Source of the DNA: Escherichia coli
GTDB taxonomy: Bacteria; Pseudomonadota; Gammaproteobacteria; Enterobacterales; Enterobacteriaceae
Assembly (NCBI RefSeq): GCF_003018255.1
Contig: NZ_CP027440.1
Direction: 5' to 3' (one strand)
Length of the DNA stretch: 64,000 nt
In this document: positions 1-43,305 of the stretch, in pieces
Layout: each line of letters opens with the position of its first letter
Numbering within the stretch: position 1 is the first letter of the stretch
Notes under the pieces: generated by a model
What the model saw: only the letters and a program-made list of their open reading frames with translations
Database searches by the model: none
What the model was told of the DNA's origin: nothing
Position numbers and translations under genes: made by a program

Positions 1-39
1 CCTGAACAACTGGCACCTGCTGCGTCACCGGAGAACCCG

Positions 40-312
40 ATGGCGCAACATATAAAATCCCACAATTCTGAAGTCGATCCGGCCATTAAGCGGGGGCGGC
101 GTTCGCACGTATTTAAAACTGACTGGTACCAGCATCCCCCATGCACTGAAGAACAGGCCGAATGGCTGATCCAGTGTTACCGCAGGCGCGGATATGAGTT
201 TGAGAAAGCCCTCAGCCTCGATTATCGTCACTGGATAATCTCCGTCAGGCTCCCTTATTCCGAACGCCCACCGCGTCCGTCCCGCACATTCCAGCAGCGC
301 ATCTGGAGGTAA
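40..312 (+). CDS. hypothetical phage protein (nin region)
   Basis: 90-aa ORF, ATG preceded by GGAGA; lies upstream of rusA/Q in a lambdoid late-regulatory region; no family recognised. Confidence 0.4.
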   Translation: MAQHIKSHNSEVDPAIKRGRRSHVFKTDWYQHPPCTEEQAEWLIQCYRRRGYEFEKALSLDYRHWIISVRLPYSERPPRPSRTFQQRIWR

Positions 313-313
313 C

Positions 314-1363
314 GTGCGGGTATTACTTCGACCTGTTCTGGTACCGGAACTCGGTCTGGTTATCGTTAAGCCAGGCCGTGAATCAATGTCAGCATTCCAT
401 AACGGCAGAATATTGGTGGAGGCGGAACCGAAAAACATGCGCGATCTGCCGTCCGGAGTCGTTCCTGCCGTTCGCCAGCCGCTGGCAGAGGATAAAACAT
501 TACTGCCATTTTTCAGCGATGAGCGGGTTATTCGTGCAGCAGGTGGTGCAGGTGCACTGTCTGACTGGTTATTACGTCACGTGAAATCCTGCCAGTGGCC
601 ACACGGCGATTATCATCACAGCGAAACAGCCATTCACCGTTATGGTACCGGCGCGATGGTGTTGTGCTGGCACTGTGACAACCAGCTGCGCGACCAGACA
701 TCAGAATCACTCGATCAACTTGCTCAGCAGAATCTGGTTGCCTGGATGATTGATGTCATCCGTCACGCAATAAGCGGTACGCAGGAGAGGGAGTTATCGC
801 TGGCCGAATTATCCTGGTGGGCGGCCTGCAATCAGGTGGTGGATGCACTACCTGAGGCAGTAGCGCGTCGTTCGCTGGGATTACCAGCGGAAAAAATCCG
901 CTCCGTATACCGTGAGAGTGACATCGTACCGGGAGAACAGACAGCCATCAGCATACTGAAGCAGCGCACAAAAAATATTGCGCTGCCACTTCACGTCCAC
1001 CAGCAACAAAATCCACCACAGAAAAAAACGGTTGTCAGTATCGCCGTTGATCCGGAGTCTCCTGAATCGTTCATGAGGCGGCCTAAACGTCGCCGTTGGG
1101 TTAATGAGAAATACACGCGCTGGGTAAAGACACAGCCGTGTGCGTGTTGTGGTAAGCCAGCTGACGATCCGCATCACCTGATTGGTCATGGTCAGGGGGG
1201 AGTGGGAACAAAGGCCCACGATATTTTCACGCTACCGTTGTGCCGGGAGCACCACAACGAACTTCATGCAGACCCGCTGAAGTTTGAGAAAAAGTACGGC
1301 TCTCAGATTGAGTTAATTTTTCGTTTTCTTGATCACGCCTTTGCGACTGGCGTGCTCGGGTAA
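314..1363 (+). CDS. DUF968-like phage protein with C-terminal Cys/His (HNH-like) cluster
   Basis: 349-aa ORF, GTG start abutting upstream stop; C-terminus CACCGKP..DPHHLIGHGQ..CREHHNELH resembles YdfU-type proteins that sit beside rusA/Q in lambdoid prophages. Confidence 0.55.
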   Translation: MRVLLRPVLVPELGLVIVKPGRESMSAFHNGRILVEAEPKNMRDLPSGVVPAVRQPLAEDKTLLPFFSDERVIRAAGGAGALSDWLLRHVKSCQWPHGDYHHSETAIHRYGTGAMVLCWHCDNQLRDQTSESLDQLAQQNLVAWMIDVIRHAISGTQERELSLAELSWWAACNQVVDALPEAVARRSLGLPAEKIRSVYRESDIVPGEQTAISILKQRTKNIALPLHVHQQQNPPQKKTVVSIAVDPESPESFMRRPKRRRWVNEKYTRWVKTQPCACCGKPADDPHHLIGHGQGGVGTKAHDIFTLPLCREHHNELHADPLKFEKKYGSQIELIFRFLDHAFATGVLG

Positions 1364-1375
1364 AAGAGGTGACTG

Positions 1376-1738
1376 ATGCTCATAGATTTGGTTTTACCTT
1401 ACCCGCCGACGGTGAACACTTACTGGCGACGCCGTGGCAGCACATATTTTGTATCAAAAGCCGGGGAGCGTTATCGCCGGGCAGTGGCGCTTATTGTTCG
1501 CCAGCAGCGACTGAAATTAAGCCTGTCCGGACGGCTGGCAATAAAAATTATTGCAGAGCCACCGGATAAGCGCCGCCGTGACCTGGACAATATTCTGAAA
1601 GCACCGCTGGATGCGCTGACGCACGCGGGGTTGTTAATGGACGATGAGCAGTTTGATGAAATCAATATTGTACGTGGCAAGCCAGTATCTGGTGGACGGC
1701 TGGAGATAAGAATTACAGAGGTGGGTGTGCATGAATAA
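1376..1738 (+). CDS. rusA: Holliday-junction resolvase RusA
   Basis: 120-aa product of typical RusA length, with acidic DLDN motif; located immediately upstream of Q. Confidence 0.85.
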   Translation: MLIDLVLPYPPTVNTYWRRRGSTYFVSKAGERYRRAVALIVRQQRLKLSLSGRLAIKIIAEPPDKRRRDLDNILKAPLDALTHAGLLMDDEQFDEINIVRGKPVSGGRLEIRITEVGVHE

Positions 1739-2396
1739 CCAGTATTTACAGTTTGTTCGTGAGCAACTCATGATTGCCACTGCGGATCTTAGTGGGTCGA
1801 CAAAAGGCCAGCTGGAAGTCTGGCAGGAAAATGCCCTGTTCGATACAGGGCGTTACAGACGCAAAAAAATTCGTTACCGCGATGAGGTAACCGGAAAAAT
1901 GATCACGCGGGATAATCCCCCGATCCCGGGCAAACAATCACTGGCGAAAGGCTCATCAATTGCCCTGGTCAGTCCGGTTGAGTTTTCGACATCATCATGG
2001 CGACGCGCCGTTCTGTCTCTTGAAGAACATCATAAAGCCTGGCTGCTGTGGTGTTACAGCGGTAGCATTTGCTGGGAGCGTCAGATCGCGATAACGCAGT
2101 GGGCGTGGACTGAATTTAATGCTCAATCCGGTACCAGAAAAATTGCAGGAAAAACTCTGGTGCGCCTGAAGACGTTGATCTGGTTGGCGGCGCAGGCGGT
2201 AAAAGCTGAGTTTTTTGGTGGGGAAGGCTACGAATACCAGGAACTGGCGTTACTGGTGGGAGTAACAACCAAAAACTGGTCCAAGACATTTACTGGTCAC
2301 TGGGTTGCAATGAAACACATTTTTCATCGGCTGGATAGTGAAGCTTTATTGTTGGTGGAGGGAACACGTTCAAAACAAAAGGCGGCATTTTCATAG
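1731..2396 (+). CDS. Q: late-gene antiterminator Q
   Basis: ATG at 1731 overlaps the rusA stop; ~221-aa protein in the canonical Q position, followed by a promoter plus short-transcript terminator (pR'/tR'-like). Confidence 0.7.
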   Translation: MNNQYLQFVREQLMIATADLSGSTKGQLEVWQENALFDTGRYRRKKIRYRDEVTGKMITRDNPPIPGKQSLAKGSSIALVSPVEFSTSSWRRAVLSLEEHHKAWLLWCYSGSICWERQIAITQWAWTEFNAQSGTRKIAGKTLVRLKTLIWLAAQAVKAEFFGGEGYEYQELALLVGVTTKNWSKTFTGHWVAMKHIFHRLDSEALLLVEGTRSKQKAAFS

Positions 2397-2403
2397 CAAA
2401 GTA

Positions 2404-2432
2404 TTGCAAAAGTAGATAAAAAGGCATATATT
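2404..2432 (+). promoter_or_regulatory. candidate late promoter pR' (TTGCAA-17 nt-TATATT)
   Basis: Sigma70-like -35/-10 with 17-nt spacer directly downstream of the Q stop. Confidence 0.5.
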
Positions 2433-2482
2433 TCGTGTAAATCTGATATTTTGCCGTTATTATACGTGATGGCAAAGCCACT

Positions 2483-2509
2483 AAAACCCGTGACCGAGCG
2501 GGTTTTTTA
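2483..2509 (+). terminator. intrinsic terminator (tR'-like)
   Basis: 8-bp stem AAAACCCG/CGGGTTTT with 8-nt loop, followed by T-run; ~50 nt downstream of the candidate pR'. Confidence 0.6.
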
Positions 2510-2649
2510 CCCCCCAAAAAATGGCATAGACATTAAACGTGATGACGATTGTGCCAATACTTTCTCCATCAATGACGCCCCTTGACTGCATGGAATCCAA
2601 TTTGTTATGTAATGTGTGTTGATATTTTTGAGTTGTTAATGGTGTTACT

Positions 2650-3363
2650 ATGGATGACAGTGCTCTGCTCAGAAACTCTTCACTTTTTGTTGCTTATATG
2701 GGCTGTCTCGGATGGGGGAGCGCTTATTTCTATGGATGGGGTACTTCATTTTACTATGGCTTTCCATGGTGGGTTGTCGGGGCTGGTGTCGATGATGTAG
2801 CACGAAGTTTGTTTTATGCTGTGACAGTTATTGTTATATTCCTTATTGGATGGGGAGTTGGTATTGTTTTCTTTTTGGGCATAAAACAAAAGCGCAATAT
2901 ACAAAATTTGAGTTTTATCCGGCTTTTTCTCGCGATATTGCTGCTTTTTATTCCACCTGTTCTGGAGTTTTCTGTAATTCATCAGCATGTTGAGCCAGAT
3001 GTACTGATTTTCTGCGTTCTTGCTGCCTTTGCAATCACGCTTTTTGTCAGGTCTGGAAGAAGACTTGTTTCAGTCAAATGTTTTTCGGAAATGTCTGTTA
3101 TTCGCCATCACCGAATTGAGTTCATGATGGCTGGGTTTATGATTTATTTCTGGGCATTCTCTCTTATTGCCGGTTGGTACAAACCACAGTTTAAGAGGGA
3201 ATATCAGGCGGTCCACTATGAGAATGTATGGTATTACATTATTGCGCGCTATGATGATCGTCTGGTGTTATCGAAATCATACAGGAGTGGGGGTAAGAAA
3301 TTCGTTATATTTAATAGCGGAAATATTAATGATTTTGAAATTAATACTGTCAGAGTACGTTAA
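2650..3363 (+). CDS. polytopic inner-membrane protein, function unknown (cargo gene)
   Basis: 237-aa ORF with several long hydrophobic Trp/Gly/Phe-rich segments; AT-rich; first gene after pR'/tR'. Confidence 0.5.
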   Translation: MDDSALLRNSSLFVAYMGCLGWGSAYFYGWGTSFYYGFPWWVVGAGVDDVARSLFYAVTVIVIFLIGWGVGIVFFLGIKQKRNIQNLSFIRLFLAILLLFIPPVLEFSVIHQHVEPDVLIFCVLAAFAITLFVRSGRRLVSVKCFSEMSVIRHHRIEFMMAGFMIYFWAFSLIAGWYKPQFKREYQAVHYENVWYYIIARYDDRLVLSKSYRSGGKKFVIFNSGNINDFEINTVRVR

Positions 3364-3536
3364 AATTTCCTGAGTAATAAAGATTTTACTGCCCGGCATT
3401 GAGCGGCTTTTTTATGCCAGAAAAATGGTGCAGTACATAAAATGTGCAGGTGGTTATTAATACCGGTCTTTCAGCTTGCTGGCTTTTTTGACAAGAGTTA
3501 TTGGTGTGTCACGTTAACCGGAAAAGGGAAAAAGAC

Positions 3537-3734
3537 ATGCTGAAACAGCAGGATATGACAGAAACCGCCAGAGCAGTTTTTAATGAATTAAGTGCCACCG
3601 AACCGGCGACAGTCGGGGAGATTGCACAGAATACGTACCTTTCACGCGAACGCTGCCAGCTAATACTGACCCAGCTTGTTATGGCGGGTCTGGCAGACTA
3701 TCAGTTCGGTTGTTACAGACGCCTTCAGTCCTGA
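3537..3734 (+). CDS. small putative DNA-binding protein
   Basis: 65 aa from internal ATG of ORF 3501..3734; stop codon embedded in a terminator hairpin; lies upstream of the methyltransferase gene. Confidence 0.4.
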   Translation: MLKQQDMTETARAVFNELSATEPATVGEIAQNTYLSRERCQLILTQLVMAGLADYQFGCYRRLQS

Positions 3735-4983: not shown

Positions 4984-5059
4984 GGCCCTTTAGCTCAGTG
5001 GTGAGAGCGAGCGACTCATAATCGCCAGGTCGCTGGTTCAAATCCAGCAAGGGCCACCA
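4984..5059 (+). tRNA. tRNA with CAT anticodon, ileX-like (tRNA-Ile2, lysidine) rather than Met
   Basis: 76-nt cloverleaf folded by hand: acceptor GGCCCTT/AAGGGCC, anticodon loop CTCATAA, T-loop TTCAAAT, 3' CCA encoded; close to remembered ileX sequence. Confidence 0.8.
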
Positions 5060-5068
5060 TATCACATA

Positions 5069-5145
5069 CCGCCATTAGCTCATCGGGATAGAGCGCCAGC
5101 CTTCGAAGCTGGCTGCGCGGGGTTCGAGTCCTCGATGGCGGTCCA
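5069..5145 (+). tRNA. tRNA-Arg (anticodon TCG)
   Basis: 77-nt cloverleaf: acceptor CCGCCAT/ATGGCGG, anticodon loop CTTCGAA, T-loop TTCGAGT, CCA encoded; 9 nt after the first tRNA. Confidence 0.75.
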
Positions 5146-5852: not shown

Positions 5853-5987
5853 CAGGGGGAGAAGATTTTCTCCTGTCCTGATGATTTTGGGGCGCTGGAA
5901 AGATATTGTGCTGTGAAGTGTTAAATCCCTCACAATTCAGTAAGTTGACAGTTGCCTGTCAGACTGAGCATTTGTTAAAAAAATTTC

Positions 5988-6165
5988 GCATGGTGAATCC
6001 CCCTGTGCGGAGGGGCGACTGGTGAACGGTATGATCTCTTTGATGATCGTAAGCGAGAATACGCGGGTTTGGTGTCACCGGGCTGAACTCACCGGGAGGC
6101 ACCCGGCACCATGCTCATGGTGATACAGAAATGCGGCTTCAGCCCCTCTCCGGAGGGGCTTTCTT
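5988..6165 (+). ncRNA. candidate structured sRNA, repeat family A copy 1
   Basis: Promoter-like TTGCCT-18-TAAAAA, then 5' CAUGGUG, hairpin CCCCU-GUGCGG-AGGGG, hairpin CCGGG-AGGCA-CCCGG, 3' CACCAUG pairing back to the 5' end, and terminator GCCCCTC-TCCG-GAGGGGC plus T-run. Confidence 0.45.
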
Positions 6166-6171
6166 ATGGAC

Positions 6172-6240
6172 AAAAAAAGCCCGCGCTGGGAGACGCGGGC
6201 GGCAAGGAATAAACAATAAAACGTGAAGTAATACTTCAAC
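6172..6240 (-). ncRNA. candidate antisense sRNA, family B copy 1
   Basis: Minus-strand TTGCGC-18-TATTAT promoter (plus 6247-6276), ~70-nt transcript with internal hairpin GAAGT-ATT-ACTTC, ending at terminator GCCCGCG..CGCGGGC plus T-run. Confidence 0.45.
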
Positions 6241-6312
6241 TGGCGAATAATACCCGACAGTAATCACTCTGCGCAATAGCGTGGCCTTTTTCGAATTGCG
6301 GGCTGTAGTCTC

Positions 6313-6484
6313 CCTTCTGCCGGGTGTCCTGGTTGCAGATTTCTTCATGGGGTAGGGTTCGGCAGTTAAAGCAGCGATGGTGCTGGGGCGTCGTGCAACT
6401 GGCGTTGAGCTGGATACCGGGCGTTTTGAACAGACTGCGCAGGAAATCAGGGATGTATTTAGCGGGAGCGGTTTGCAGAAGTAA
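6313..6484 (+). pseudogene. 3' fragment of a DNA methyltransferase gene (duplicate of the 4781-4943 region, in-frame TAG)
   Basis: ~170 nt nearly collinear with the 3' end of the intact methylase gene (DLVADFFMG..GRRATGVEL..), interrupted by a stop; lacks the 5' 90% of the gene. Confidence 0.7.
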
Positions 6485-6547
6485 TCTCCCAAAATGCCAT
6501 TTTTGGAATATACTGGTATTAAGTCTTTTTGCTCAGGTTAATTCAAA

Positions 6548-7273
6548 ATGGATGTTGCCTGCTCTGTGGTCCTGATTCGCTATCCGATAGATATTTTTCT
6601 TGAAAAAGAAAAAGTTTCACTCGATGCCGGAAGTGTTATGCTTGTTGCCAGAAATATAAGAGGGCTTTTCTGTGCTTATGCCGACAGAGTGAAAATGGCA
6701 GATATAAGTAACAGCGTCGTCAATCAGTATCTGGAAAGGGAGTGTGAACTGACGGAGTATACACCGACAAAAATGCCTCTTTATTTGATGTCTGATATTT
6801 ACAATACGGAACTGGCGGAGGCTTTAATAACCCAGCATAGTGAATCCAGTGATACTTTGAAGGATTTCTCTGTTATAACCGCATTTTCATGTATCTCCTT
6901 ATTTGCAACAGACAGACGTCTGCCATTATTTTTGTCCGGTGCTGTAAATAATATCAGCTGTAAAGTAAGGGCTATAATTCAGACCGACATATCGGCAGGC
7001 TGGATGCTTGGTGTGATTGCATTACAATTGCATATGAGCGAAAGCTTGTTGAAGCGAAAACTTAAGGATGAAGGTTATAGCTTTAGTCGGTTGTTGCTGG
7101 AGGAGCGAATGCGTGTTGCTGTTAATCTTGTATGTTTCCAGCGAGAGTGTGGACAAGCGATAGCGGAAAAATGTGGTTACTCAAGTAAGTCCTACTTCAT
7201 TTCTGTATTTCACCAGTATTATGGTGCACCACCTGAGAGCTATGCATATTTGCAGAAAGCAGACGTTATCTGA
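6548..7273 (+). CDS. AraC/XylS-family transcriptional regulator (cargo gene)
   Basis: 241-aa ORF with C-terminal dual helix-turn-helix typical of AraC family (..LKDEGYSFSRLLLEERMRVA..IAEKCGYSSKSYFISVFHQYYGAPPESY); start codon uncertain. Confidence 0.7.
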   Translation: MDVACSVVLIRYPIDIFLEKEKVSLDAGSVMLVARNIRGLFCAYADRVKMADISNSVVNQYLERECELTEYTPTKMPLYLMSDIYNTELAEALITQHSESSDTLKDFSVITAFSCISLFATDRRLPLFLSGAVNNISCKVRAIIQTDISAGWMLGVIALQLHMSESLLKRKLKDEGYSFSRLLLEERMRVAVNLVCFQRECGQAIAEKCGYSSKSYFISVFHQYYGAPPESYAYLQKADVI

Positions 7274-7362
7274 TGTTTTTTCATCAGGCATATATTGATT
7301 GACTGTATTAGATATAGTCTGAATGTGTTCAGCATAAAAAGTTATAATCATTTGGTGTTTGC

Positions 7363-7641
7363 GTGAATATTGATGAGAAAATCAGATGTAGCCAACTGTT
7401 ACAGCGTATTGAAGCCGTCAATGTGGAACGAACAAAGGTCTTCAGTCGTCTGACAGTTTTATTTTGTACCCCTGATCGACGTTCAGGTCAGGAGATGGTT
7501 CTTCTGGATGTAGATGCACTTCGGAACGTCTGTGAGGAGTTCACCGCGGCTAATTCGGAGTTACTGAGTCTTGTTCAGGAGTACAACAGAATTGCAGGTA
7601 GTAACGGTTTTGATGAAATCAAAATTATATCCCGTGGATAA
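7363..7641 (+). CDS. hypothetical protein
   Basis: 92-aa ORF with GTG start 15 nt downstream of a perfect TATAAT; no family recognised; weak RBS. Confidence 0.3.
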   Translation: MNIDEKIRCSQLLQRIEAVNVERTKVFSRLTVLFCTPDRRSGQEMVLLDVDALRNVCEEFTAANSELLSLVQEYNRIAGSNGFDEIKIISRG

Positions 7642-7899
7642 AACATATCCTGTATATTTATGTTGTTACATACAGGCGCTTTTAGTATCTGCCGCACGGC
7701 AGTTGTACTTCAGAATAAGATGCTTTTGTGACTGGTGGTGTTGTATCTGGGGTTAGCCAGTAGGCAGGTTCAGAGAGTCCGGTGGTAATTATGTGTATGC
7801 AGTGGTTGTTGCTGTACCGTGGGCAAGTTCTGGAACTGGCTTCGTCCATTGTAGATGATTGTTAGCTGGATATCAGTTACCTCATGGAAATGTTAAATG

Positions 7900-26000: not shown

Positions 26001-26717
26001 ATGTCTGCTTTGTATGAACGCTCACAGCTGACGCAGGTGATGATTTCATCTGCCCCGGCGACTGCTGAAATTATGGATAAGGCGGAATATCTGCGCCTGG
26101 ACTGCACCATCAAGGAAGTCCAGTTCACCGCCGGTCAGAAACAGGATATTGATGTGACCACGCTCTGCTCCACAGAGCAGGAGAACATCAACGGTCTGGG
26201 GGCGTCGTCCGAGATTTCCATGTCGGGTAATTTTTATCTGAATCAGGCCCAGAACGCCCTGCGTGATGCTTATGACAATGACGCGTTGTATGCGTTTAAG
26301 GTGCAGTTTCCGTCCGGTAAGGGCTTTAAATTCCTGGCGGAAGTGCGTCAGCACACCTGGTCATCCGGTACCAACGGCGTGGTGGCTGCAACGTTCTCAC
26401 TGCGTCTGAAAGGCAAACCGGTGTCCTTTGTGGTACCGCTGGCGTTTGTGAAAAATCTGGATAAGACACTTACCGTGAATACCGGTGCGCTGCTGACAAT
26501 GTCAGTCAGTGCCAACGGGGGAATGCCGCCGTATAAATACGCCTGGAAGAAGGATGGTCAGCCGGTTGACGGGCAGACGACAGACACCTTCAGTAAGCCC
26601 GGTGCGCAGTCCGCTGATGCGGGGAAATATACCTGCGTGGTGACCGATTCGGCAGAGAAAGCACAGAGTGTGACGTCTGTTGAATGCACCGTGACAGTGA
26701 GCGCAGCCGCCGGATAA
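26001..26717 (+). CDS. major tail protein with C-terminal Ig-like domain
   Basis: 238 aa; C-terminal ~80 aa Ig-like (..YKYAWKKDGQPVDGQTTDTFSKPGAQSADAGKYTCVVTD..). Confidence 0.75.
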   Translation: MSALYERSQLTQVMISSAPATAEIMDKAEYLRLDCTIKEVQFTAGQKQDIDVTTLCSTEQENINGLGASSEISMSGNFYLNQAQNALRDAYDNDALYAFKVQFPSGKGFKFLAEVRQHTWSSGTNGVVAATFSLRLKGKPVSFVVPLAFVKNLDKTLTVNTGALLTMSVSANGGMPPYKYAWKKDGQPVDGQTTDTFSKPGAQSADAGKYTCVVTDSAEKAQSVTSVECTVTVSAAAG

Positions 26718-26731
26718 GGGGATGGGGCATC

Positions 26732-27106
26732 ATGAAAAAGGATCTGAAAACGCTGGCGCTGGCCAGACTGTCAGGGTTTCGTCATAAAACGGTGAAGGTG
26801 CCGGAATGGGGTAATGTCAGCGTGGTGCTGCGGGAGCCTTCGGCAGAGGCCTGGTATCTGTGGCAGGACGTGCTCAATGGTGATGGAGAGGATGACGATA
26901 CCCTGTCGGTGGTGGCGAAAACCCGCCGTAACCTGGAAGCGGATGTGACGCTGTTCTGCGATGTCCTGTGTGATACGGACCTGCAGCGGGTGTTCACTCC
27001 GGACGACCGTGAGCAGGTGCTGGCCGTCTATGGTCCGGTACATGCCCGGTTGCTGCGTCAGGCACTGGAACTGATCGCTGATGCAGGGTCGGCCAGAAAA
27101 AAGTAG
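26732..27106 (+). CDS. tail assembly chaperone (G-like)
   Basis: 124 aa from ATG with AAGGGGA RBS; ends ..AGSARKK at a slippery A AAA AAG heptamer. Confidence 0.75.
   Translation: MKKDLKTLALARLSGFRHKTVKVPEWGNVSVVLREPSAEAWYLWQDVLNGDGEDDDTLSVVAKTRRNLEADVTLFCDVLCDTDLQRVFTPDDREQVLAVYGPVHARLLRQALELIADAGSARKK
27097..27103 (+). promoter_or_regulatory. programmed -1 ribosomal frameshift site (A AAA AAG)
   Basis: Slippery heptamer in the G reading frame, 1 codon before the G stop; the -1 frame is open through to 27411. Confidence 0.6.
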
Positions 27107-27411
27107 CCCGCCCGGAAATTCGCTTTCTGATGCGACTTGCGCTCCGTCTGGGGCGCACCTTATCCGAACTGCGCCACAGCCTGAGTGCGAGCGAGGCGAT
27201 GATGTGGATGGAGTTCGACAGGATATCCCCGCTGGGTGATGAGCGCGGGGATATCCGTAATGCACAGATCGTGAAAGCGGTTTTCGGGGCACAGGGGATG
27301 AATGTTGCACTGAAGGACGCCATGCTCTGCTGGGGCGAGGATGAGGATAAACCGGAGGTGGATCCGTTTGCGGCGCTGGAAGACGCGCTGAGCTTTGCAG
27401 CACAGTCATGA
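27103..27411 (+). CDS. frameshift extension of tail assembly chaperone (GT-like fusion product)
   Basis: Frame -1 relative to G, open from the slippery site; contains ORF 27130..27411; expressed only as a fusion. Confidence 0.6.
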   Translation, partial: VARPEIRFLMRLALRLGRTLSELRHSLSASEAMMWMEFDRISPLGDERGDIRNAQIVKAVFGAQGMNVALKDAMLCWGEDEDKPEVDPFAALEDALSFAAQS

Positions 27412-39683: not shown

Positions 39684-40952
39684 ATGGCAGTCAGAATATC
39701 GGGTGTGCTGAAGGACGGGGCCGGTAAGCCGGTACCGGGATGCACGATAGAGCTGAAAGCGCGACGCACAACGGAGACGGTGATTGTCACCACGGTGGCG
39801 TATGGTCAGCCGGGGGAAACCGGCAGTTACAGTATGGATGTTGAGCCGGGTCTGTACCGGGTGACGCTGAACACGGAAGGGTACGCGCCGTCATATGTGG
39901 GTGACATTCTGGTGAAGGCGGACTCTGCACCGGGAACGCTGAATAAATTTCTGATGGACCTGGAGGACGCACAGTATTACCCGAAAGCCCTTGCAGAGCT
40001 GGAAGCGGTGGCCGCGGAAATCCTGAAACGTGCGGAAGCGTCAGCGGCGAGTGCAGAGGAAGCGAAGAAACGGGCAGAGAATGCGCGGGGACCGAAGGGG
40101 GATAAGGGAGACACCGGGCCACAGGGTATTCCCGGGCCAAAAGGCGATACCGGCGAGCGTGGGCCAAAGGGTGAGCGTGGTGAGGCAGGCCCACAGGGGG
40201 TACAGGGGCCACGGGGTGAAACCGGACCCGTGGGACCGCAAGGAGAGGCGGGTATTCAGGGGCCTGCTGGTCCTGCGGGCCCGCGAGGTGAAACCGGAGC
40301 CAGAGGCGAAAAAGGAGAGCCGGGAGATCCCGGAGGACCTCCGGGACCAAAAGGTGACACTGGCCCCAGAGGGGAGCCGGGGCCTCAGGGCCCGGCAGGT
40401 CCGAGGGGACCTGCCGGAGAGAGAGGGCCGCAAGGATTGCAGGGTGTGGCAGGGGAGAGAGGCGATACAGGTCCGGCTGGCCCACAGGGTATACCTGGAC
40501 CTCCGGGGCCAACAGGTAGCGTCGGTCCTAAGGGGGAAAAAGGCGAGCCTGGTGATCGAGGTCCACAGGGTGCTACCGGCCCCAGAGGACCACAAGGGGA
40601 AAAAGGGGATAAAGGTGACCCCGGCCCGGCAGGCCCTGCCGGTGAGCGGGGGCCGAAAGGTGATACCGGGCCGACGGGCCCCGCAGGGAAGGATGGCGCA
40701 GATTCACAGGCGAACAGAGTGCGTATCAGCGAGAAAACAGAAGTCACCTCCAGCACAGTCGTTTTCCCCTCTTTTTATGGCGGTGCGCAGGGGGAAAATG
40801 CAGCCCCTGAGGGCGCTGTGATTCTGAATATCAGGACGGCTCCGGTATCACTGACGAACGGCAATTTAGGGGCAGCCTGTGTCACCGCTGTCACTTACGG
40901 CTTCCTTCAGGTTCATGATGGCAGCCAGTGGGTTACGGTGGAACATGAATAA
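39684..40952 (+). CDS. side tail fibre protein with collagen-like Gly-X-Y region
   Basis: N-terminus [26 protein letters not shown].. like lambda Stf; ~200 residues of uninterrupted G-X-Y triplets (nt ~40080-40700); short C-terminal domain. Confidence 0.8.
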
Positions 40953-41020: not shown

Positions 41021-41692
41021 ATGAATCTTAAAAATCTGCAACGTTATACTCCTGAGAAGTCGGATGTTCCGGGGGCAATGTACCTGAAGGCAGAGGATGG
41101 CCGTGACTGGTATGAAAGCCAGTCGTCATTTAAGGCGGATACGCTGAAGCTGGTTTATGACAGCGAAGGCATAATCACGAGTATCAGTAAGGATGTGTCG
41201 ATGCTGTGGCCAGTGGGACAGAGTGTGGTGGAGGTTGAGGATACAGAAGAAAACCGCAAAGCTGATATCTCCGGGCGCTGGAAGTTTGACGGGGAAAAAG
41301 TCGTTGATACTCTGACCGCGGAGAAAGCGCGCGGGATGAAGGGCGATGAAATAAACGCGTGGCGTAATGCGATGGAGGCGGCGAACTACACGTTTGAGCA
41401 CAATGGCCGGAAATGGGACTACGGAAAGTCAACGCAGACGCGTCTTGAGCCATCGGTGGCGGCAGCGAAAGCGGGGAAACTGCCGGAGGCGTTTTTCTGG
41501 ACGGATGCGGAAAACAATGATGTACAGGTGACAGCAGAAGAGCTTATTGCGCTGAGTGAAGCGGCAGAGCAGGCGATGTTCAGCAAAGGGATGGAAATCC
41601 ACATTCGCCAGCGCACCATGAAGAAGGACCTGGAATCGCTGAGCAGTGCGGATGAGATCCTGGTATACAGGGTTGGCTGGGCACAGGAATAA
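41021..41692 (+). CDS. tail fibre assembly protein
   Basis: 223 aa; N-terminus MNLKNLQRYTPEK..DGRDWYES..ADTLKLVYDSEGIITSI.. resembles Tfa-family chaperones. Confidence 0.7.
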   Translation: MNLKNLQRYTPEKSDVPGAMYLKAEDGRDWYESQSSFKADTLKLVYDSEGIITSISKDVSMLWPVGQSVVEVEDTEENRKADISGRWKFDGEKVVDTLTAEKARGMKGDEINAWRNAMEAANYTFEHNGRKWDYGKSTQTRLEPSVAAAKAGKLPEAFFWTDAENNDVQVTAEELIALSEAAEQAMFSKGMEIHIRQRTMKKDLESLSSADEILVYRVGWAQE

Positions 41693-42099
41693 CAGACAAA
41701 AAGATGGGGGACCATCACCTCCCCCATGAACTGCGTTGATTATGTCATTATTGTGAAGATATACACTATGCCGGGTAAATAGTGCCACGGAAAAGTTAAT
41801 TCCGGAAGTGACGGAACTCTCATTTTTCGTGCATCCTGTTGATATGGATGATTTTTCAGATTTTCGGAAGTCCGTATTTTTTCCCAGACATTTTGAAGCG
41901 TTTGCTTAATGAACGTATGTGCAGGCTCTTTATCTACGGCTCTTAAAATTGAGAGTCTATCATTGCTGGAGCCTGTGACAATTACGTCCAGGAAGAACTG
42001 CATAACCTGGATGATTTACGCTCAATCAGAGAGAGGGCGATTAGCGGCAATCACGCTTGATAAAATTAACCCCAGTGATCATCCGGGGTTTTGCAATCA

Positions 42100-42660
42100 T
42101 TAAAACCGCATCAACCGTTCTACCAGTTGTTCTTTACGGGCAACGATCCAGCCGTGTTGCTCCAGATAAAATTTAAACCGCTCCAGAGTGCATACCATCG
42201 CATCGGCGGGGACTTTTTCTGTGAACTCTACCTGACCGTGTTTATCAAAGTGGATCAGTAATGCGCATCCATCATTTGGGGTGGGGGAGTTTTGTGTTGC
42301 TGGTGGTTGTTTATGGCTGAAATAACAGTCTTCCAGTTTTTCGAACACTTCCCACGCCTGATCGGTTTCGAGCATTTTTGCATGGCGGGCAGCGCCACGT
42401 TCTGTCCAGAGGATAAGGGAGCGGGCATTTTTACCAACTAACCCGATTGTTTCGGGTCTGTTCTTAAACTCGCGTAATTCGTTTTTTTCAATTTTAAAGT
42501 AATGCTTTCCTACCACGAATCGCGTCGTGTTGTTCAGAAAGTTATCAGAAATGTTTTTGATTTTTGTTCCGTATAACTGCGCCAGAAGTTCAGTTGTAAT
42601 AACGGGGATCTGGTTGTGGGTGATTGCAGGAAGAGTGTCGACAGAAATTTGAGTGGTCAT
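42100..42660 (-). CDS. ORF6N/KilA-N-like DNA-binding protein (putative antirepressor-like regulator)
   Basis: 186 aa from ATG at 42660 with GGAG RBS; N-terminal ..ITHNQIPVITTELLAQLYGTKIKNISDNFLNNTTRFVVGKHYFKIEKNELREF..; last prophage gene before attR, antisense to late genes. Confidence 0.5.
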   Translation of the reverse strand: MTTQISVDTLPAITHNQIPVITTELLAQLYGTKIKNISDNFLNNTTRFVVGKHYFKIEKNELREFKNRPETIGLVGKNARSLILWTERGAARHAKMLETDQAWEVFEKLEDCYFSHKQPPATQNSPTPNDGCALLIHFDKHGQVEFTEKVPADAMVCTLERFKFYLEQHGWIVARKEQLVERLMRF

Positions 42661-43130
42661 AACGATAACTCCGTACATTTGAAAATTATCGCCACCTTCA
42701 GGTTCCAATCATCATGGTGGCGAACTGTGCGGGGTTGGAACTACCGGGTACGGAAACCGGCGAGCCTTTCGGCTCCCCCACACAGCCCGCCATAAATCGC
42801 GAATGTGACTGTGCAAACGATATGAAAAAAGACGCGGGCGCGTCTCATATCGCTCCGTAAACATCCGGGGTTCCAATCCCGACGCCAGATTTTGCTGACG
42901 CGTTGGAAATATAGCCCCGGAGGATAAAAACTGTCAACGGGTAAAAAAATTTCCGTTATCAGGAATGTATAAAATTAAAGCAATCGAGCAAAAAAACTCT
43001 CTGCAAAACTAAAAAAGATCTCAATAAAATCAGGCAGTTAAAAACACGGAAAAACGGTATAAAAAAGCATCTCAAAATCCTGTTTTTTCTTTCAGATACA
43101 ATATGTTATTGCATTTTTTAAAACCTGCCA

Positions 43131-43247
43131 GTCTGGTACATGGATATTGATACCACTGCCAATTATAAACTGGGCGGTGCACAGCAACACGATAGCGTAC
43201 GCCTCGATCCGTGGGTGTTTATGTTCTCAGCAGGATATCGTTTTTAA
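43131..43247 (+). other. ompW: ompW 3'-end fragment (..VWYMDIDTTANYKLGGAQQHDSVRLDPWVFMFSAGYRF*), probable attR / integration-site remnant
   Basis: In-frame translation matches remembered OmpW C-terminus only from ~43131 onward; upstream DNA is phage-like; next gene is yciE as in the E. coli ompW neighbourhood. Confidence 0.55.
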
Positions 43248-43305
43248 TTCCGCACAAAAATGACCCCGTAATTACGGGGTCAATAAGGACATGGTATAAA
43301 GGGTA

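Follow-up and report, generated by a model that had tools for sequence, protein, structure and literature searches.

A probable isrK–C4-type antirepressor switch at the right end of an Escherichia coli lambda-like prophage integrated in the 3' part of ompW

The DNA considered here is a stretch of 64,000 nucleotides from Escherichia coli (NCBI RefSeq assembly GCF_003018255.1, contig NZ_CP027440.1), called the window below, and the region of interest lies around positions 42,100–43,250, where a prophage ends within the 3' part of the ompW gene. The evidence supports its assignment as the right end of a lambda-like prophage of the PPompW type. Its last module, carried by the minus strand, consists successively of a promoter, an isrK-type leader RNA, a C4-type antisense RNA, a leader of 50 nt, a gene for an ORF6N-domain protein and a terminator. 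This arrangement is likely to be a switch of the type known from immI of phage P1 and from isrK-anrP of the Salmonella prophage Gifsy-1, in which an antirepressor is kept silent. The sequence, the homologies and the covariation described below are direct observations; the outcomes proposed for the lysogen are deduced from them or borrowed from the P1 and Gifsy-1 literature.

The protein gene of the module comprises 186 codons and spans 42100–42660 on the minus strand, the start codon ATG occupying 42660–42658 and the stop codon 42102–42100. As the earlier note on this DNA had recognised, it is the last gene of the prophage and is oriented opposite to the tail genes; it is intact. Its 186-residue product contains an ORF6N domain (Pfam PF10543, E=1.6e-20), matches end to end the family PHROG 2379, labelled 'anti-repressor' (E=3.6e-94), and is 70% identical over its full length to AnrP (STM2616) of Gifsy-1, of which it looks like the orthologue. 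The ORF6N domain, which covers about the first 115 residues, is near-identical in the two proteins, whereas the C-terminal third has diverged. No similarity was found between this protein and Ant1 of P1, and their Pfam domains differ. From these homologies, the protein is expected to be a phage antirepressor, which would bind and inactivate a repressor. Just 3' of its stop codon, the hairpin AACCCCGGATGATCACTGGGGTT (42090–42068, minus strand) forms a terminator-like site and is likely the terminator of the whole isrK–C4–ORF6N operon. The RefSeq annotation of the junction includes no promoter, isrK or C4, and lists only a partial ompW and an "ORF6N domain-containing protein".

The interval of about 400 bp between this gene and the junction had been described as devoid of any convincing open reading frame (ORF). 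This holds for proteins, with no credible protein gene in the ORF list between 42661 and 43128, but the interval is not empty, since the promoter, isrK and C4 are located there, with the P arm of the phage attachment site attP next to them. The sigma-70 promoter, TTGACA-18 nt-TATATT (42937–42908, minus strand), has 11 of the 12 consensus matches and is positioned to start transcription at the 5' end of isrK. A TTGAC motif and a TATA-type −10 hexamer are found at the same place in most of 13 cassettes, and no LexA box or recognisable operator was seen at this promoter. The isrK-type leader RNA (42901–42825, minus strand) is recognised by Rfam model RF01394 with 72.7 bits, for a gathering score of 50, and ends with an intrinsic terminator detected by a terminator scan (stem 42846–42829, then a U run). 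The C4-type RNA (42797–42713, minus strand) matches model RF01695 over its full length (1–87) with 78.9 bits, for a gathering score of 45, and shows the tRNA-like stem and the ...CACCA 3' end. A predicted upstream ORF of 31 codons (42793–42698, minus strand) starts from an AUG within the C4 5' end, at the same position as that of orf45, its counterpart in Gifsy-1 (about nt 107–109 from the isrK start). Its stop codon (42700–42698) lies 38 nt before the ORF6N ATG and 5 nt before a hairpin sequestering the Shine-Dalgarno sequence. A further RNA 3' of the ORF6N gene was also considered and rejected: the Rfam scan of 41650–43300 gave no match to isrJ at E<=1, and no other known RNA lies 3' of the gene at this threshold.

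The C4 RNA exposes two elements, the b' hairpin loop UUUCCGUAC (42756–42748, minus strand) and the a' bulge GUUCCAAC (42741–42734, minus strand), and each has a complementary sequence on both of its sides, the site labels being taken from the annotated P1 record. The a' bulge is complementary to UUGGAAC in isrK (a1, 42876–42870) and to UUGGAAC in the leader of the ORF6N gene (a2, 42708–42702); the b' loop is complementary to UACGGAG in isrK (b1, 42859–42853) and to GUACGGAG in the leader (b2, 42676–42669), these four targets also lying on the minus strand. The b2 site includes the Shine-Dalgarno GGAG (42672–42669), located 8 nt before the ORF6N ATG, and its pairing with the C4 loop involves 7 nt in Watson-Crick pairs and one G-U pair.

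These complementarities covary among cassettes. The a sites were compared in 14 cassettes, aligned without manual editing, with 500 shuffles and slid registers as controls. For a1:a', 99% of the cells are paired and 5 of the 7 pairs have changed on both sides, the slid controls giving 19–50%; for a':a2, the corresponding values are again 99% and 5 of 7, with slid controls at 22–39%. None of the 500 shuffles reaches the score in either case. The b elements vary in length, and each loop was therefore compared with each leader by counting the nucleotides of contiguous Watson-Crick complement, here for 13 cassettes. Each b' loop finds 6–10 nt of contiguous complement in its own leader (mean 7.5), against 4.4 +/- 0.9 in non-cognate leaders, and in 13/13 cassettes the match falls in the same register, just 5' of the start region of the downstream gene or overlapping it. 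At least eight different a codes and at least nine different b codes are in use among the cassettes. In Gifsy-1, the a1:a' contact has been proven by the compensatory mutants G28A/C162U and G31A/C159U (PMC4825925). In whole-molecule RNAduplex comparisons of C4 with its flanks, the opening of the long C4 stem and G+C-rich arms dominated the result, and cognate partners could not be told from non-cognate ones; these comparisons were replaced by the loop-only complement counts and the column-wise covariation. The minimum-energy fold of the 262-nt transcript keeps both the isrK hairpins and the C4 fold, and predicts a local hairpin in which the ORF6N Shine-Dalgarno is base-paired (z = -3.75).

These observations bear on whether the ORF6N protein is produced in the lysogen, which had been thought plausible from its antisense orientation. 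Half of this proposal stands: the lysogen probably transcribes the operon but probably makes no protein from the ORF6N gene, considering that the Shine-Dalgarno of this gene is the C4 target and is predicted to lie in a hairpin, and considering the AnrP precedent. The ORF6N protein could otherwise be a moron-like regulator, constitutively made in the lysogen and transcribed against the late operon, as the strong promoter with its 11/12 consensus matches, the lack of a LexA box or recognisable operator there and the orientation opposite to the tail genes might suggest. This looks very unlikely when the same Shine-Dalgarno is both a covarying C4 target and predicted to be hidden in a hairpin. 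Moreover, under basal conditions the orthologous anrP is transcribed without being translated (280 versus 4 Miller units; PMC4825925), and an antirepressor made all the time would destabilise lysogeny.

The silent-antirepressor switch may be pictured as follows. The promoter would fire in the lysogen and most transcripts would end at the isrK terminator. Those reading through would give rise to C4, presumably through excision by RNase P, as in P1 and P7, where C4 is cut from its precursor by this enzyme (Hartmann et al. 1995, cited in PMC2190699). The a' bulge and b' loop of C4 would then pair with a2 and b2, and no antirepressor would be made because b2 is the Shine-Dalgarno of its gene; in P1, C4 stops translation through pairing at a2 and b2. 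The short IsrK, which has the same a and b sites, could titrate C4 or refold the long transcript; in Gifsy-1, short IsrK supplied in trans switches anrP translation on, and AnrP raises antQ expression and induces the prophage (PMC4825925). If IsrK won, the antirepressor would be translated and would inactivate either the prophage's own short, non-cleavable repressor of DicA/Gifsy type or that of a co-resident prophage, leading to RecA-independent induction. If a homo-immune phage entered, its copy of the cassette would likewise be silenced by C4 acting in trans.

The repressors of related PPompW prophages fit this scheme. They are 135–139 residues long, with a helix-turn-helix domain only and no S24 domain, and belong to the DicA/Gifsy class, which is not cleavable after RecA activation and is relieved by antirepressors. 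Since these repressors have no RecA-cleavable domain, an RNA-gated antirepressor is a plausible route to SOS-independent induction and to cross-talk between prophages. The module may thus be considered both as a gate on RecA-independent induction and as an immunity element with coded specificity. Its value lies chiefly in the annotation and interpretation of PPompW right ends, and the covariation table provides a ready set of orthogonal a/b codes for immunity specificity.

Similar cassettes are widespread. Among 50,697 phage records, 295 carry similar DNA, including Gifsy-1, VT2-Sakai, many Stx phages, SfV, phiV10, a Klebsiella phage and APSE, and in all 12 further loci that were retrieved, C4 follows isrK after about 25 nt and precedes an antirepressor-type gene. 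The cargo differs in its domains: ORF6N alone in Gifsy-1 and in the window, ORF6N with P22_AR_C in VT2-Sakai, Bro-N in APSE and ANT/KilAC in P1. In Gifsy-1 and the Stx phages the cassette belongs to the early region, whereas here it occupies the far right end and lies on the reverse strand. One record stands apart: PP818812.1, labelled as the Actinobacillus pleuropneumoniae phage vB_Apl-pPE4, has the cassette at 94.3% identity, far above any E. coli phage record, and this closeness to the window makes its Actinobacillus host label look odd.

The related prophage of JNE120442 harbours a second isrK–C4–ORF6N cassette in its early region (26516–27306 of the retrieved stretch), with codes differing from those of the right-end cassette (UUGAGAC for a, AUCAACCA for b); in the colinear prophage of strain 05-3629, no ORF6N gene is annotated in the corresponding region. 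Such a second cassette might suggest that IsrK and C4 are the selected part, acting mainly in trans on cassettes of other prophages or on host mRNAs via Hfq, the ORF6N gene being incidental. Rfam describes isrK as an Hfq-binding RNA, and prophages of the RM14516 type keep isrK and C4 above their gathering scores despite a frameshifted ORF6N gene. However, the two JNE120442 cassettes are orthogonal rather than cross-reacting because their codes differ, the ORF6N gene of the window is intact and of full length, and the adjoining a2 and b2 sites are perfectly matched to the local C4. A main role in trans therefore appears unlikely.

Several points weigh against a working, silenced antirepressor in the window. 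The divergence of the C-terminal third from AnrP leaves the target repressor unspecified by homology. The frameshift in RM14516-type prophages, where both RNAs are retained, means that the protein is dispensable in some lineages. The c4-a1b1 model (RF03163), which overlaps isrK, reaches 44.6 bits, narrowly missing its gathering score of 46.7. When processed C4 is co-folded with either the leader or IsrK in RNAcofold, the net energy is about 0, which is uninformative rather than negative because loop-loop contacts of the kissing or pseudoknot kind cannot be represented by this program. The attL site, the integrase and the repressor lie outside the window, and the evidence for them comes from relatives, not from this genome. 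Finally, the Gifsy-1 study invokes refolding in cis and translational coupling through an orf45 that overlaps the anrP start (PMC4825925). The upstream ORF of the window has only 31 codons and ends 38 nt upstream, and the coupling part of that mechanism may therefore not apply; a ribosome terminating 5 nt before the Shine-Dalgarno hairpin might possibly still open it, which would provide a looser coupling.

The broken ORF6N gene of the relatives might even suggest that the module is inert cargo, a recombination scar in a decaying prophage, and a truncated dinI-like fragment indeed lies directly alongside (41880–41990). Such decay is extremely improbable for the window itself, where the promoter, the terminator, both RNAs, the four target sites and the ORF are all intact and in register, and where the rest of the prophage retains long intact ORFs of head, tail and lysis size.

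The boundary of the prophage is well defined. On the plus strand, 43131–43247 encodes VWYMDIDTTANYKLGGAQQHDSVRLDPWVFMFSAGYRF*, that is, the last 38 residues of OmpW and the stop, identical to the C-terminus of the K-12 protein (coding 43131–43244, stop 43245–43247). In a three-way alignment of the window, K-12 ompW and the other prophage end, similarity to ompW begins at 43129 (CAGTCTGGTAC...), and the 200 bases to the left cannot be aligned to ompW. Further 3' come yciE, yciF, yciG and trpA-E with the trp leader, the usual ompW neighbourhood in E. coli. With a threshold of at least 80% coverage of a 1.7-kb query, the junction is present in 65 of 5,426 complete E. coli genomes. No intact ompW runs into this segment from upstream: in JNE120442, the top match (99.5% identical), RefSeq labels it a partial ompW pseudogene. 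About 54 kb upstream, that genome has a full-length ompW; an integrase and an excisionase come directly after it, along with exo, dicB and a cI/cro-type switch. The left end is the same in the colinear strain 05-3629, in which the junction and the initial 3 kb of the window are both found, correctly spaced: there too, a full-length ompW is immediately followed by a lambda-type integrase and an excisionase. The colinearity of this strain gives a prophage length of about 55 kb.

Given this hybrid full-length ompW with int and xis upstream in related genomes, the segment 43129–43249 (plus strand) is the attR copy of the PPompW repeat, in other words the displaced native 3' end of ompW. The repeat common to attL and attR is direct, imperfect and 121 bp long, as published. 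The window copy is identical to K-12 attB at 117/121 positions (97%) and to the attL copies at only 92/121 (76%), which implies that the phage brings its own diverged ompW 3' end. Since attL has a phage-type middle and attR a host-type middle, the left edge of the repeat must contain the crossover, which is bounded to about 43129–43156 (CAGTCTGGTACATGGATATTGATACCAC); single-nucleotide polymorphisms at 43133 and 43148, which vary from strain to strain and also distinguish attL from attR copies, prevent a finer placement. The proposals of the earlier note on this point, namely an in-frame ompW C-terminus, a homology starting only near 43131 and an attR of a phage integrating in the ompW 3' end, are thus borne out by the two comparisons it had called for: the alignment with K-12 ompW bounds the crossover, and attL and the integrase were located in JNE120442 and 05-3629, the attL of the window's own genome lying upstream of the window. 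Integration would then involve a tyrosine integrase recombining at a short core within the ompW 3' end. The phage-borne version of the final ~95 bases of ompW, which has diverged, would regenerate a full-length hybrid gene at attL, leaving the native 3' end at attR (43129–43249) as a dead fragment.

The hybrid OmpW of the lysogens (JNE120442, 15906–16544, and 05-3629, 12939–13577, of the retrieved stretches) has 212 residues, with seven substitutions at residues 185–194, where the phage-supplied 3' end changes NYKLGGAQQH to KYKSGVTTVK. These residues presumably form the last surface loop, according to the usual 8-strand barrel topology, and integration may therefore change a surface receptor epitope of OmpW instead of being neutral.

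Between the promoter and the core lies an A/T-rich segment of about 190 bp (42938–43128), which most probably represents the P arm of attP; its conservation in the diverged prophage of RM14516 type is about 93%. The motif CTCTGCAAAAC occurs there in single copy, at 42999–43009; the more general form CTCTGCAAAA(C/T) is found once in the P arm of the window and in three tandem copies in the P' arm, beside int, in JNE120442. These copies are candidate arm-type sites for Int, and the integrase of related PPompW prophages has the lambda-type Arm-DNA-binding domain. The P arm also contains the only match in the region scanned to the outer triplets of a LexA box, CTGTTTTTTCTTTCAG (CTG-N10-CAG, 43080–43095), 35 bp from the core; as about 0.3 such matches are expected there, this is chance level. 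LexA control of the isrK promoter, which itself has no box, was accordingly rejected.

From gene order and strands, the cassette lies flush against the P arm and on the same strand as int. In the circular genome of an excised or infecting phage, leftward xis/int transcripts would consequently cross attP and read isrK–C4–antirepressor in sense orientation; once integrated, the cassette would be severed from int and left with its own promoter only. A functional meaning of this sib-like position is conceivable, although we consider it quite unlikely. If it were real, the output of antirepressor and C4, or the fate of the int mRNA, would depend on the integration state.

A few neighbouring features of the window deserve mention. 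An 87-residue ORF on the minus strand (41740–42003), located between a tail-fibre assembly gene and the ORF6N operon, was examined as a possible further gene of this operon and rejected: it has no Pfam or PHROG match and contains an internal dinI-like fragment. This fragment, whose core is at 41880–41990, is 53% identical over 36 residues to DinI of BP-4795 and is missing both gene ends, and phage 1720a-02 has an intact dinI-like gene of 249 bp at the corresponding place; the fragment is a recombination scar, not a gene. The tail-fibre ORF at 39684–40952 (plus strand) has a long collagen-like region of Gly-X-Y repeats. Five tandem copies of the STnc100 small RNA family (RF02076, 119–172 bits) occupy 5959–8910 on the plus strand, 3' of Q and of two tRNA genes, tRNA-Met and tRNA-Arg (4984–5145). 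The slot 3' of Q and the tRNA genes is where Stx phages carry stx; no ORF of stx size was seen in it here (5959–8910).

Compared with known systems, the integration site brings no difference in kind. PPompW prophages are lambda-like prophages common in Shiga-toxin-producing E. coli (STEC), with a reported att of 121 bp, and Stx phages use them as landing pads (Nakamura et al. 2021, PMC8112680). With the PPompW prophages described there for STEC and enteropathogenic E. coli, the prophage of the window shares its lambda-like character, its position in the ompW 3' end, an imperfect 121-bp attL/attR repeat and an integrase adjoining ompW; the passages of that paper considered here do not discuss an RNA cassette at the right end. 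No prophage-in-prophage insertion is evident at the prophage end seen in the window. The attR junction is thus of a kind already published, the elements found around it are of known kinds, and the understanding of their mechanisms is unchanged.

The attachment site itself resembles attP of lambda, with A/T-rich arms around a short core, a motif in single copy in the P arm and in three copies in the P' arm, an Int arm-binding domain and, judging here from gene order, a structured RNA element across attP from int and on the int strand. It differs by a core located inside a gene, of which the phage carries a replacement 3' end, and by what lies across attP: an antirepressor switch instead of the RNase III site of lambda (sib).

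The closest relative of the module is isrK-orf45-anrP of Gifsy-1 (Hershko-Shalev et al. 2016, PMC4825925). The order promoter, isrK, terminator, C4-like RNA (STnc1160) and ORF6N antirepressor is the same in both, and the same a/b complementarities are present, although the a and b codes differ. The Gifsy-1 orf45 has 45 codons and overlaps the anrP ATG as ATGA, whereas the ORF of the window has 31 codons and no overlap; isrJ follows the antirepressor gene in Gifsy-1 and not in the window. The Gifsy-1 locus lies beside antQ, in the early/late control region and on the forward strand, in contrast to a last module before attR here.

The parallel with immI of P1 and P7 (c4-icd-ant) is more distant. 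The module has no icd, the antirepressor occupying its place, and this antirepressor has an ORF6N domain, whereas P1 Ant1 has an ANT/KilAC domain; the assignment as P1 immI proper was rejected on these two grounds. The module also has no C1 operator, and its leader includes an intrinsic terminator that would give a discrete IsrK RNA. What is common to both is the core of the device: a C4 RNA with a1/b1 upstream and a2/b2 downstream, the b2 site lying over a ribosome-binding site (that of icd in P1) with nearly the same spacings, and a specificity set by the a and b sequences.

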